This document shows, in pieces, positions 15,638 to 19,194 of a stretch of 64,000 nt of DNA (position 1 is the stretch's first letter; each line of letters begins with the position of its first letter). The DNA comes from Mytilus trossulus. Lineage: Eukaryota. Location of the stretch: positions 44,665,552 to 44,729,551 of the forward strand of contig NC_086382.1 in the NCBI RefSeq assembly GCF_036588685.1, in the 5' to 3' direction. The notes beneath the pieces were generated by a model. That model was given only the letters and a program-made list of their open reading frames with translations, was not told the origin of the DNA and did not search any database. Both the position numbers and the translations under genes were made by a program.

Positions 15638-17202
15638 GTGAGAGTTTTTTGTTCTGTTTTGTAACTATCTTTAAAGAAGAAATGAATAATTCATACAATA
15701 ATATTTGTAAATGTCGTAATAAGAGGGTAAAGAGAGGTAAATTAATTAATAGCAAGTTTTCAATTAAGTTAGTTTCTATGTTTCGTTTATATAGCAATTT
15801 TGATAAAAAAAACAAAAAAACAAAAAAAAACAAAAAAACCTTAATTGATGTTTTAACAAAAAAAAATTCTTATGATCATTTGATATTGAAATTCTTATTT
15901 TTTTACTGCTTTATATAATTTTCATATACATTGTTGATCATTTGAATTTCAAATGTTATTCAGGGAGACAATGGACAAAGTACAACAGCCACTGTTATTA
16001 TATTGGAGAAGACAATATTATATGGACTGAGGCAGAGGTAAGCTTACGTCTATACCGTCACTATGGTGGATGTTTTTTTAAGAAAAATTTGAAAAAAAAT
16101 ATTTCATAAAATTTGTGTGTCATTTTATCACTGCAAATTGTTTGCAAATCCATATTTACTTGGTGCTTTCATTTGTTCGCGGGTAAATGATGTGTTAATA
16201 AAAAAAAATCACAGAAATAAATCACATTTGTAAAATCATATTTACTTTATAGAGAAAATGCAGAGAGATTGGAGGGTATTTAGTGAAAATTGATGACTCG
16301 TCCGAAAACAGTTGGATACAACAGCAATTGAATAAAAGCAGCATAAGTAAGTCGAACAGATCTAGGATTTTTTTTATTCATTTTGCGTAACTAGTGTAAA
16401 TAGATAACTGGTGTGACGTCACAACAATATTAATAACGTACACCAATAAACAATAAAATAAATAAATAATTGTTAAAACAAGTTAATGAATAGAGTCACT
16501 ATGAAACACGACACCTATATAAATTAGAATCCGTTTGTTTTTTTTGCATTGTTTTGTTGCTGTCTCATACGCATATACGATCTCCTATCTCCTTTTATGA
16601 TTATCCTTAACTTCAAAATTCTTCTGAACGGTTAAAAAAAATTAGAATTATTTTGCAATGGACTATTTTCATATTTGATAGTTAACAGCATATTTAAAAC
16701 ATCCTGACTTTGTAGCTCGATTAAGTAAATTTTGCACTTGTGATGCAACTTTAGTTGTAGTCAATACATATGCCTCAATCAGTTTGTTATAATTGTTTTT
16801 GCAGGAGAACTTAAATTTGATTTTTTTATGGCAGAGAGATAAGCCAGAGTTTGGGACTCAATGATACAGGAACGAGTATTCTAATCAATTATAAGAGGCG
16901 TATGAAAACTATTACATAGTGGAGGCTAATCATGTACACTCATTACTGAAACATTTGACAGCAAAAATACATAAAAGCCTATGAATATTATTGACACTAA
17001 TTATTGTTTCCTTCATATCATTTTAGAAACATATTTCTGGTTAGGATCTACAGATGTGGTCAATGGTGACTGGAGATGGATATATGATCAAACTCAGTTG
17101 AGCTACAAGAACTTTGTCTCAGGACACCCTTATCCAACCAGTAGTACAAACTCCCACTCATATTACTGTATTTTGATGCACTTCAGCAATGGTAACTGGT
17201 AG
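15418..17202 (+). CDS. C-type lectin domain (CTLD) protein gene with 4 coding exons: signal peptide, coiled-coil neck, CTLD. Possibly a pseudogene or null allele, because the ORF ends at an in-frame TAG inside the CTLD.
   Basis: The spliced translation reads MTSVLMFNFLVMCTVCETVFSLPC...KRRQWTKYNSHCYYIGEDNIIWTEAERKCREIGGYLVKIDDSSENSWIQQQLNKSSIKTYFWLGSTDVVNGDWRWIYDQTQLSYKNFVSGHPYPTSSTNSHSYYCILMHFSNGNW*. The canonical CTLD landmarks are present (W.KY...CY, WIGLTD, W.W, E.C, G.W). All four introns are GT-AG and the exon phases are consistent (220+74+94+176 nt). Confidence 0.8.
15964..16037 (+). CDS. C-type lectin exon 2: start of the CTLD
   Basis: Acceptor is ttattcag and the donor is gtaagc. Peptide is (R)RQWTKYNSHCYYIGEDNIIWTEAE. 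Confidence 0.8.
16253..16346 (+). CDS. C-type lectin exon 3
   Basis: Acceptor is tttatag and the donor is gtaagt. Peptide is RKCREIGGYLVKIDDSSENSWIQQQLNKSSI. Confidence 0.8.
17027..17202 (+). CDS. C-type lectin exon 4, ending at an in-frame TAG (17200-17202) before the final conserved D..C...CE motif
   Basis: Acceptor is cattttag. Peptide is (K)TYFWLGSTDVVNGDWRWIYDQTQLSYKNFVSGHPYPTSSTNSHSYYCILMHFSNGNW, then TAG. Read in the same frame, 17203-17250 continues as DSLCQSTRQYVCESNF, which is the expected CTLD C-terminus. Confidence 0.8.
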
Positions 17203-19194
17203 GACAGTTTATGTCAGTCCACTCGCCAATATGTCTGTGAAAGTAACTTCTGTAAGTTCATTACAAGTGTCAGTAACAGTCCAGACACATATTCAGTGTT
17301 CCCTTTTCTTCTTTTTTTTTAACAATTATAATCTCGTTGGTTGATATATTTATAGTAGAGATAAAATATGATGATGTTACATTGTAATCTTGAATCCATA
17401 TTGATAACAGTTTTGAAATAATTATTCCCAGAGAATCTTAAGCCGATCTGCAAGTTATAAGCAATTTTTACATTGTACAAGTTCCTTAATAACTCTAAAG
17501 GAAAACTACGCAGATCTCCGATAAACTGTTGTTTTGAAAAAAATTCTTATAAACTGTTGTTTTCCACTTTATGATATTTAGGGGAAAACTATTTAATATG
17601 TTTGTTGTATGTACATTTAAAAATGTCACTTAGATTCGTGTGCAGATCAAGAGAGTGTTTGGAAATTTTGGTTTCATGATCAGCTTTTGTGGAGGGTATG
17701 GGCCAATTAGTGACTTTTTTACAGTTAAAATTTGGAATAGGCAATTCATTTTTGTATAGAATTTTTATTGATTTTTGCTATCATTACTTTCATATGATCG
17801 GTATAATATATGGCAAAAAGAATTTCAAAATGACTGCTTATATCTTTAATTTTTTTTCTCGATTTTGTCGCAGAAGAAGCGAGACACATACTGTTCTACA
17901 TGCCTTTAACGCGGGAGAGACCGGCCTTTTATGAAAACAATAAACTGAAAAGTTAAAATTGTAATCATTAGACATCAGAATTCTTACGGTTCTTACATGT
18001 TATATGTATTTTACATTAGATTTTTTAATTTCTACCCTATTTCCATTTCAGGTTTCCAATAGAAATGTGAATGTTTCCGCTAAAACCAGATGACAGATTC
18101 AATATGATACGTTAAAGTATTACTACGGTGCATAATCATGTTGTTGTGTTTATGAAGATAACAAGTCTCCTAATATGACTTATTATAACAATAAAGATAT
18201 GTGGTTTATATATTTTAAATGAAGTTGCAGCTTCCAAGTTTCCATATTCACAGTTCTGTACGTTCCTCATTTCTGACTTTTAGAAATATATGGTTCAATA
18301 GTGCAAGGGGTCTTTTTAATTATTAATAAACCTCATTAAGACAATTACACAGACCAAGATAAAATAAATGTAATAAAATTCTCTGTCCTGGTTGTGAGGA
18401 AGAATAACTAAAAATCACTAAATGAGTTCTGCAACTAGTTGATTTATAGTTTGTTCATGTTCAACTTTCTAGGTATTTGAACTTTGGAATATATTCAACA
18501 TGTTCCTCTGACATTGTTATCAGTTTGGTAATATTCCTTTCTTAGATCCATTATTCTCAATATGACTGTGGAATCATATACTAGTAAGTTCAGTATGCAT
18601 AGGTGAAGATGGTCACCAGGTCTTTCAATTGTATTATATACCACTTTATCCCATTCAAATTATAGCAAACCAAAGGTAGAGAGTTAATCTAGTATAATTT
18701 CATCCCAACCACCCTACTTTTGAACATTGCGAAATCAGTTGATCATTTTAAAATCATATTTGTCCACCTCCAAATTAACTAGGGGACTATTGTAGTGTCA
18801 ACCTATGTTCTCCATGTGACAGTATTATCTGAATATATATGATATTATTGTTGCTGGACATTCAGCAAACAAACATTAATGAAGCAATAAATGTAGCAGC
18901 CTGCATCAATGGATGAAGAAGCCAAAAACCAATCATGATTGGTCAAAACCAGTGTTATTCTGTTTATTCCAGAAAGCAAAAAAAAAAATTCCTCCAAAAA
19001 AAACTAAACATATTGAAACTACAAATATATTACTTTAATAATATCATTTTCACAGTATAAATTACAAATTGCACAGAATGAATATAAAATAGTATCACAT
19101 TGTCTGTAGTACGAAAAAAACTTGAAGATATTTTCTTCAGTGCTCATTCACCATTTTGACTGATACACGCTTCATAATACACCAATTTTGAGTT

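Follow-up and report, generated by a model that had tools for sequence, protein, structure and literature searches.

Why does a lectin gene whose structure is otherwise intact carry a stop codon inside its defining domain? This question is raised by a 64,000-nucleotide stretch of Mytilus trossulus DNA, analysed here as a whole and referred to as the window (all positions are given in its numbering), in which a gene for a secreted protein with a C-type lectin-like domain (CTLD) lies on the plus strand and is interrupted by an in-frame TAG at 17200-17202. According to our analysis, this stop is most probably the result of a recent nonsense mutation, from TAT or TAC to TAG, in a single-copy M. 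trossulus lectin gene, the outcome being a loss-of-function (null) allele.

The window, with a G+C content of about 30-34%, is AT-rich and lacks long open reading frames (ORFs), which fits intron-rich animal DNA. The lectin gene was compared with its counterparts in two Mytilus galloprovincialis assemblies, a draft assembly (UYJE01009533.1, hereafter L002, protein P0003, VDI74245.1) and a chromosome-level assembly (OZ263154.1, hereafter L003, protein P0048, XP_076079089.1, named "perlucin-like protein"), each of which holds a 207-residue lectin gene between the MBOAT and major vault protein (MVP) genes. The M. trossulus gene has five exons with coding lengths of 220, 74, 94, 225 and 11 nt, for a coding sequence (CDS) of 624 nt; each of the four introns has GT-AG ends, and neither the start codon nor the ancestral stop has been lost. 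Joining 15418-15637, 15964-16037, 16253-16346 and the sequence from 17027 onward at GT-AG boundaries gives an ORF of 187 residues ending in ...SYYCILMHFSNGNW. The gene is laid out as follows:

15418-15637, plus strand: exon 1, residues 1-73, ending in phase 1; from the ATG it encodes a hydrophobic N-terminus resembling a signal peptide and then a long alpha-helical neck; followed by a GT donor (GTGAGA), 220 nt as in L002 and L003.

15964-16037, plus strand: exon 2, with the start of the CTLD (RQWTKYNSHCYYIGEDNIIWTEAE); AG acceptor and GT donor, 74 nt as in the orthologues.

16253-16346, plus strand: exon 3, with CTLD helices alpha1 and alpha2 and Cys101; AG acceptor and GT donor, 94 nt as in the orthologues.

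17027-17251, plus strand: exon 4, with the remaining CTLD and the premature stop; acceptor TTTTAG, donor T|GTAAGT at 17252, 225 nt, no indel relative to the orthologues.

17200-17202, plus strand: premature TAG, codon 188, in the middle of the W-x-D motif in strand beta4.

17203-17251, plus strand: stranded coding remnant, codons 189-204 and the first base of codon 205 (DSLCQSTRQYVCESNF).

17212-17214 and 17236-17238, plus strand: codons of Cys192 and Cys200, within the stranded remnant.

17252-18051, plus strand: intron 4 (donor GTAAGT, acceptor TTTCAG); splicing at the corresponding place in the M. galloprovincialis orthologues gives CFQ and the stop.

18052-18062, plus strand: coding part of exon 5, 11 nt (GT TTC CAA TAG), that is, Cys205-Phe-Gln-stop, with the ancestral stop at 18060-18062 and the 3' untranslated region (UTR) after it.

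The first description of this locus, a sequence-only reading, had counted four exons; the 11-nt exon 5 makes a fifth. It had also let the ORF extend past CESNFC, in a stretch that lies in intron 4: the open frame runs on there as KFITSVSNS... (KFITSVSNSPDTYSVFPFLLFF, then a stop), which is intron and not coding sequence. The conceptual C-terminus is instead ...CESNFCFQ-stop, and the closest relatives likewise end in ...CESNFCFQ. The block at 18024-18155 is 87% identical to L002 12803-12934, and the exon 5 coding sequence equals that of L002 except for GT in place of GC, a synonymous difference within the TGT/TGC cysteine codon. An AATAAA is present at 18190 and may be a polyadenylation signal.

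Positions 17190-17210 read TGGTAACTGGTAGGACAGTTT, the TAG standing in frame in exon 4, and the 19 codons that follow spell the canonical C-terminus of a CTLD in the same frame, ...SYYCILMHFSNGNW, the stop, and then DSLCQSTRQYVCESNF, in which the stranded remnant aligns with the family-wide D-x-x-C...YVCESNF ending. The Pfam domain Lectin_C (PF00059, curated cut-off 22.6 bits), whose match begins at residue 93, scored 47.2 bits over profile positions 4-92 of 107 on the truncated product and 62.9 bits over positions 4-106 of 107 (E = 5e-17) when the stop was read as X, so that the cut-off was exceeded in both cases. This gain indicates that the in-frame continuation is true domain sequence and not a product of chance. 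Our reconstruction coincides here with the sequence-only reading, in which a TAG inside the CTLD, followed by a canonical ending, had already been recognised.

Which codon did the stop replace? Exon lengths and the 624-nt CDS are identical in the window, L002 and L003, with zero indels in exact spliced reconstructions, and L002 is collinear with the window on either side of the lectin gene. In the DNA alignment of exon 4, codon 188 is TAG in the window, TAT (Tyr) in L002, TTA (Leu) in L003, and TAC both in L004, a paralogue from M. edulis, and in L001, a transcript (Logan mRNA) that was assembled from a public run. Because the orthologues carry TAT and TTA and the two paralogues TAC, the simplest history would be a single third-position change at 17202, from TAT or TAC to TAG. 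The suggestion that a gene for a secreted CTLD protein, intact in other respects, underwent a nonsense change of one nucleotide is borne out by the TAT of the orthologue, the same exon lengths and the lack of indels. The codon itself had been guessed differently: asparagine, serine or aspartate was supposed to be ancestral, with AAT, AGT or GAT expected in paralogues, whereas TAT, TAC or TTA was found, and TAT in L002 together with TAC in the paralogues points to tyrosine.

The same conclusion about the residue is reflected in the family at large. Of the homologues, 40 have a residue at this column, and in these the W-x-D triplet is WYD in 11, WLD in 7, WFD in 7, WRD in 3 and WID in 3, the other forms being single; Y, L or F occupies the column in 28 of the 40, N in one (WND) and Trp in none. 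The TAG had been placed at a conserved W-N/D-D site, which is correct in so far as its counterpart in DC-SIGN is the N of W-N-D, but the family itself carries W-Y/L/F-D at this position.

As a separate observation, L002 (10001-12841) and L003 (10001-12825), compared as M. galloprovincialis alleles of the same locus, gave a nonsynonymous divergence (dN) of 0.064, a synonymous divergence (dS) of 0.092 and a dN/dS of 0.70, and the difference extends to codon 188, the TAG of the window, which is TAT (Tyr) in L002 and TTA (Leu) in L003. There is thus a hint, at the level of sequence, of relaxed or diversifying selection on the lectin within M. galloprovincialis.

How old is the lesion? Using the Nei-Gojobori method, dN/dS against the two orthologues was 0.31-0.32 overall, 0.20-0.23 in the CTLD before the stop and 0.25-0.28 after it, the last value being drawn from 19 codons. 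No second lesion was found in the lectin gene, whose frame, start codon, splice sites and ancestral stop are intact and which is free of indels. Counting replacements unique to one gene at columns that do not vary among 11 other family members gave 3 for the window gene and 0-6 for the others. An old, neutrally evolving pseudogene was considered and rejected, dN/dS being far from 1 both overall (0.31) and past the stop, with no excess of replacements at conserved sites. Because other defects are lacking and dN/dS is low on both sides of the stop, the stop appears to be recent, and the whole CDS, its now untranslated tail included, would have been under purifying selection for nearly all its history. 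The conserved codons past the stop suggest that they were translated until recently.

Some observations weigh against a recent null mutation. The dS against the positional orthologues is high (0.41), and the 19 codons past the stop give low power to the dN/dS estimated there. The RefSeq pipeline treats the 187-residue product as an ordinary protein, with no low-quality flag. The base at 17202 is known from one assembly, so that a base-calling error is formally possible, and no independent contig with the lectin gene, in either allelic form, was found in the protein and contig collections. Concerning divergence, dS against two paralogues was 0.50-0.53; because synteny is shared and the dS of 0.41 is lower than these values, strict orthology of L002 and L003 to the window gene is supported, short of proof. 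The window lectin is 78-79% identical in protein to its positional orthologues, and its CDS 84-85% identical, for 74-88% in the alignable flanks; the neighbouring MBOAT and MVP exons overlap the fetched orthologous loci in too few clean coding blocks for a dS baseline.

Could the stop then be an error of the consensus or assembly, with T or C truly at 17202 and an intact gene of 207 residues? We regard this as unlikely, even though all else about the gene looks functional and its sequence comes from one assembly only. The 90% protein cluster of the 187-residue product has a single member, in NCBI and UniRef only, an exact-protein look-up of this product returned no record, and 0 matches were obtained when metagenome contigs were scanned with a 34-nt pattern in which 17202 could be any base, so that no other contig speaks for either form. 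The site, however, lies outside any homopolymer or repeat (CTGGTAGGACAG). Single-base substitution errors are rare in a long-read consensus of the haplotype-resolved, 45x kind. The source build, PNRI_Mtr1.1.1.hap1 (GCF_036588685.1), is a haplotype-resolved, chromosome-level M. trossulus build with 45x coverage (PMC11304980). In this build the annotation pipeline accepted the TAG as a natural stop: the 187-residue product is 100% identical to M. trossulus RefSeq XP_063403803.1/XP_063403804.1, on a chromosome of 78.46 Mb, under the name "C-type lectin domain family 4 member D-like".

An assembly error is also disfavoured by the independent occurrence of exon 4 nonsense mutations in a paralogue. 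Indeed, the M. galloprovincialis locus L005 (UYJE01003011.1, exon 4 at 11908-12138) has two in-frame TAA codons, at 12004-12006 and 12031-12033, past both of which CTLD sequence goes on in frame, and it is annotated as a protein of 160 residues (P0017) ending at the first of them. Nonsense decay thus recurs in this lectin family, and short annotated members can be decayed copies. A second family member in M. trossulus (P0022, 130 residues, "CD209 antigen-like protein E", on a chromosome of 113 Mb) ends just past exon 3 (...QQISKDISM); it could be either another truncated copy or an annotation artefact. Within the window itself, tblastn detected no lectin paralogue, the gene matching only itself.

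If the TAG is real, could it be bypassed? Readthrough, A-to-I editing of UAG to UGG or alternative splicing would restore a full-length or nearly full-length protein, and the intact downstream frame is the sole point in favour of this scenario, which we hold to be extremely improbable. The RNA fold of 17130-17270 was no more stable than that of shuffled sequence (z = +0.29), and hence gave no sign of an editing duplex or of a readthrough-stimulating structure. Editing would place at codon 188 a Trp that, as said above, no homologue has in this column. The base that follows the stop is G, and a G after a stop codon is a context that favours termination. Two splicing candidates were tried and rejected. 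Removal of an 11-nt mini-intron (GTAACTGGTAG), already dismissed in the sequence-only reading, would shift the frame, since 11 is not divisible by 3, and in the orthologue these bases belong to the coding sequence (N-G-N-W-Y-D). Splicing from a GTAACT donor at 17192 to exon 5 would give ...HFSNGFQ-stop, a product that is still truncated.

What would become of the messenger? The last base of the stop (17202) lies 49 nt, and its first base 52 nt, upstream of the exon 4/5 junction (17251), and the premature stop adds just 60 nt to the 3' UTR. In mammals, a stop is expected to trigger nonsense-mediated mRNA decay (NMD) when the last exon junction follows it by more than 50-55 nt; to our knowledge, this rule is not established for molluscs. 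Since the stop sits at the edge of the rule and the 3' UTR is only 60 nt longer, NMD of the TAG transcript may be weak.

What protein would be made from it? The fold, with two helices, two sheets and beta1 paired with beta5, was established on the model of the intact orthologue P0003, and not on the truncated product. This AlphaFold2 (AF2) model, built on a 38-sequence alignment (mean pLDDT 83.3), shows a hydrophobic N-terminal helix (3-20), a long helix (27-74) forming a 48-residue neck, and last CTLD strands at 177-180, 187-190 and 196-202. Foldseek searches of the PDB with the model gave E = 1e-11 and a target-normalised TM-score of up to 0.87 (carbohydrate-recognition domain, CRD, of SRCL, 2OX8), and sequence searches of the PDB agree with a CTLD (matches down to 4e-29). 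Residue 188 lies in strand beta4, and the truncation drops the rest of beta4, the whole of beta5, Cys192, Cys200 and Cys205. The sequence-only reading had foreseen the loss of the C-terminal cysteines, of which three go, but had put the loss at about 16 residues in place of 20 (188-207).

The conceptual translation contains four core cysteines, Cys101, Cys178, Cys192 and Cys200, of which the 187-residue product keeps Cys101 and Cys178. In CTLDs, one disulfide joins the cysteine of helix alpha1 to that of beta5, and another joins the cysteine of beta3 to the one after beta4. Cys101, as the partner of the lost Cys200, and Cys178 would both be left unpaired in the 187-residue product. Owing to these unpaired cysteines and to the loss of beta5, the product is very likely misfolded and non-functional.

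Taken as a sequence of events, the preferred explanation runs as follows. The gene, located between the MBOAT and MVP genes, encodes a lectin-like secretory protein of the "perlucin-like"/"CLEC4D-like" family, in which a helical neck precedes a CTLD. The third base of its tyrosine codon mutated at 17202, ending translation at residue 187 of 207. The resulting protein would keep its signal peptide, its neck helix and most of the CTLD, but with Cys101 and Cys178 deprived of their disulfide partners and with an N/C-terminal sheet that could not close, it would most likely be misfolded and degraded, leaving a null allele. The stop, its origin in one base, the soundness of the remaining gene and the strands and cysteines lost are shown by the sequence comparisons and the model, whereas misfolding, loss of function and the behaviour of the mRNA are inferred. 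The core of the sequence-only reading, that is, a recent pseudogene or null allele from which the C-terminal cysteines have been removed, is supported by these comparisons.

Might the short form nevertheless be of use to the animal? In one version of this idea, an mRNA escaping NMD would yield a protein made of the neck and a broken CTLD, which would join the products of intact alleles or paralogues and modulate them through the neck; in another, the null allele would be held by balancing selection at intermediate frequency, as a point-mutation form of "functional presence/absence" variation within an individual-specific immune repertoire, alongside the deletion-type variation described in mussels. 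The short distance to the last junction (49 nt) and the modest addition to the 3' UTR may indeed let the mRNA evade NMD, the product retains its signal peptide and 48-residue neck helix, and the orthologue model resembles the trimeric neck-plus-CRD lectins tetranectin, surfactant protein D (SP-D) and CL-K1. Two RefSeq protein accessions exist for the 187-residue product, and immune gene content differs among individual mussels (PMC7653742). We nonetheless judge either version distinctly improbable: two core cysteines would be unpaired and the central strand beta5 is gone, no full-length family member ends at codon 188, the other short members inspected are decayed copies with their stops elsewhere, and the codons past the stop are still conserved. 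A young null allele produced by a single nonsense mutation therefore remains the explanation that we favour.

The CTLD itself departs from the classical type. H-P-Y in the window lectin aligns with E-P-N of DC-SIGN, and the family has R-P-Y/F there. The family has lost the canonical Ca2+ site 2 residues, and the lectin is probably a CTLD protein and not a classical Ca2+-dependent sugar binder.

The rest of the window holds other genes and several repeats. The MBOAT-family gene of the M. galloprovincialis loci has its collinear counterpart on the minus strand at about 39-10495; L002 lacks some 4.6 kb of this region (3465-8067). A stretch of about 10495-14751 is without counterpart in L002 and contains, at 11098-11797, a 263-nt unit repeated 2.7 times with 99% identity; this stretch may be a recent insertion or duplication. 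Downstream of the lectin gene, the MVP gene occupies about 20800-43272 on the minus strand, and its exons at 27-43 kb are supported by Pfam matches on the following ORFs:

27161-27412, minus strand: MVP_shoulder.

35909-36082, minus strand: Vault_2.

41269-41502, minus strand: Vault.

43099-43272, minus strand: Vault_3 (weak match).

A further minus-strand ORF at 23768-24025, without a Pfam match, was read by eye as the C-terminal exon of MVP. Its low-coordinate end is overlapped by a 73-nt unit present in 2.2 copies (23694-23853), which matches many overlapping copies, spaced by about 61 nt, at about 21352-22408 of L002, a pattern pointing to a tandem array of unequal length in the window and L002. 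Between this ORF and that at 27161-27412 lies a minisatellite (24398-25671) made of 27 copies of a 47-nt unit with 93% matches. Two adjacent satellite-like arrays at 39212-40361, with units of about 135/261 nt and of 161 nt in about four copies each, stand between MVP exon ORFs, and a match to the 161-nt unit also occurs in a short segment of L002. Finally, a CDC5L/Cef1-like gene on the minus strand spans 51834-62704, with two Myb DNA-binding repeats at 61829-62053 and 62552-62704 and a Myb_Cef exon at 51834-52100.

Taken alone, the lectin stop matters little: it would add one young loss-of-function allele to a lectin family that is large, evolves fast and contains recurrent decayed copies. 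Because the 187-residue product is entered in RefSeq as a normal protein, tallies of functional M. trossulus CTLD genes would include at least one broken copy, and checking short products against their orthologues would reveal such copies. Should the stop be polymorphic, it would provide a single-base marker with which to set point nulls against whole-gene presence/absence in mussel immune repertoires.

With respect to known proteins, the window lectin shares the CTLD fold with canonical C-type lectin CRDs such as those of DC-SIGN/CD209, the mannose receptor and CLEC4D/CLEC6A, and has FWLG as a WIGL-like motif, but its family has not kept EPN/QPD and W-N-D. The "CLEC4D-like" label is an annotation name and implies no orthology to CLEC4D. 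In common with tetranectin (1HTN), SP-D and the collectin CL-K1, the orthologue model has a long alpha-helix directly before the CTLD, and Foldseek alignments of 145-171 columns to these proteins span its neck and CRD. The window lectin differs from them in lacking a collagen region. The likeness comes from a predicted model that leaves in doubt how neck and CRD are oriented to each other, since the root-mean-square deviation is high (5-9 Å) with the neck included.

Among its own relatives, the gene occupies the same genomic slot as the M. galloprovincialis orthologues and has the same exons and the same architecture of signal peptide, helical neck and CTLD, but these are intact at 207 residues, with a Tyr or Leu codon in place of the TAG. 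With L005/P0017 it shares the lectin family, the exon structure and exon 4 nonsense codons beyond which the CTLD continues in frame; that copy differs in having two stops, at other codons and at another locus, and is older or more decayed than the window gene. Bivalve C-type lectin families are described as strongly expanded, including lineage-specific subfamilies (PMC10140915), and the family of the window gene is one of these expanded and partly lineage-specific groups. In mussels, massive presence/absence variation of whole genes, tied to hemizygous regions, has been reported (Gerdol et al., 2020, PMC7653742). In both situations individuals would differ in which lectin or effector genes work, but there the whole gene is absent, whereas the window gene still occupies its slot, which is conserved across two species (three haplotypes), and owes its defect to a point mutation. 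The window gene is a further example of a known phenomenon, namely a young null allele or unitary pseudogene in an immune family evolving by birth and death.

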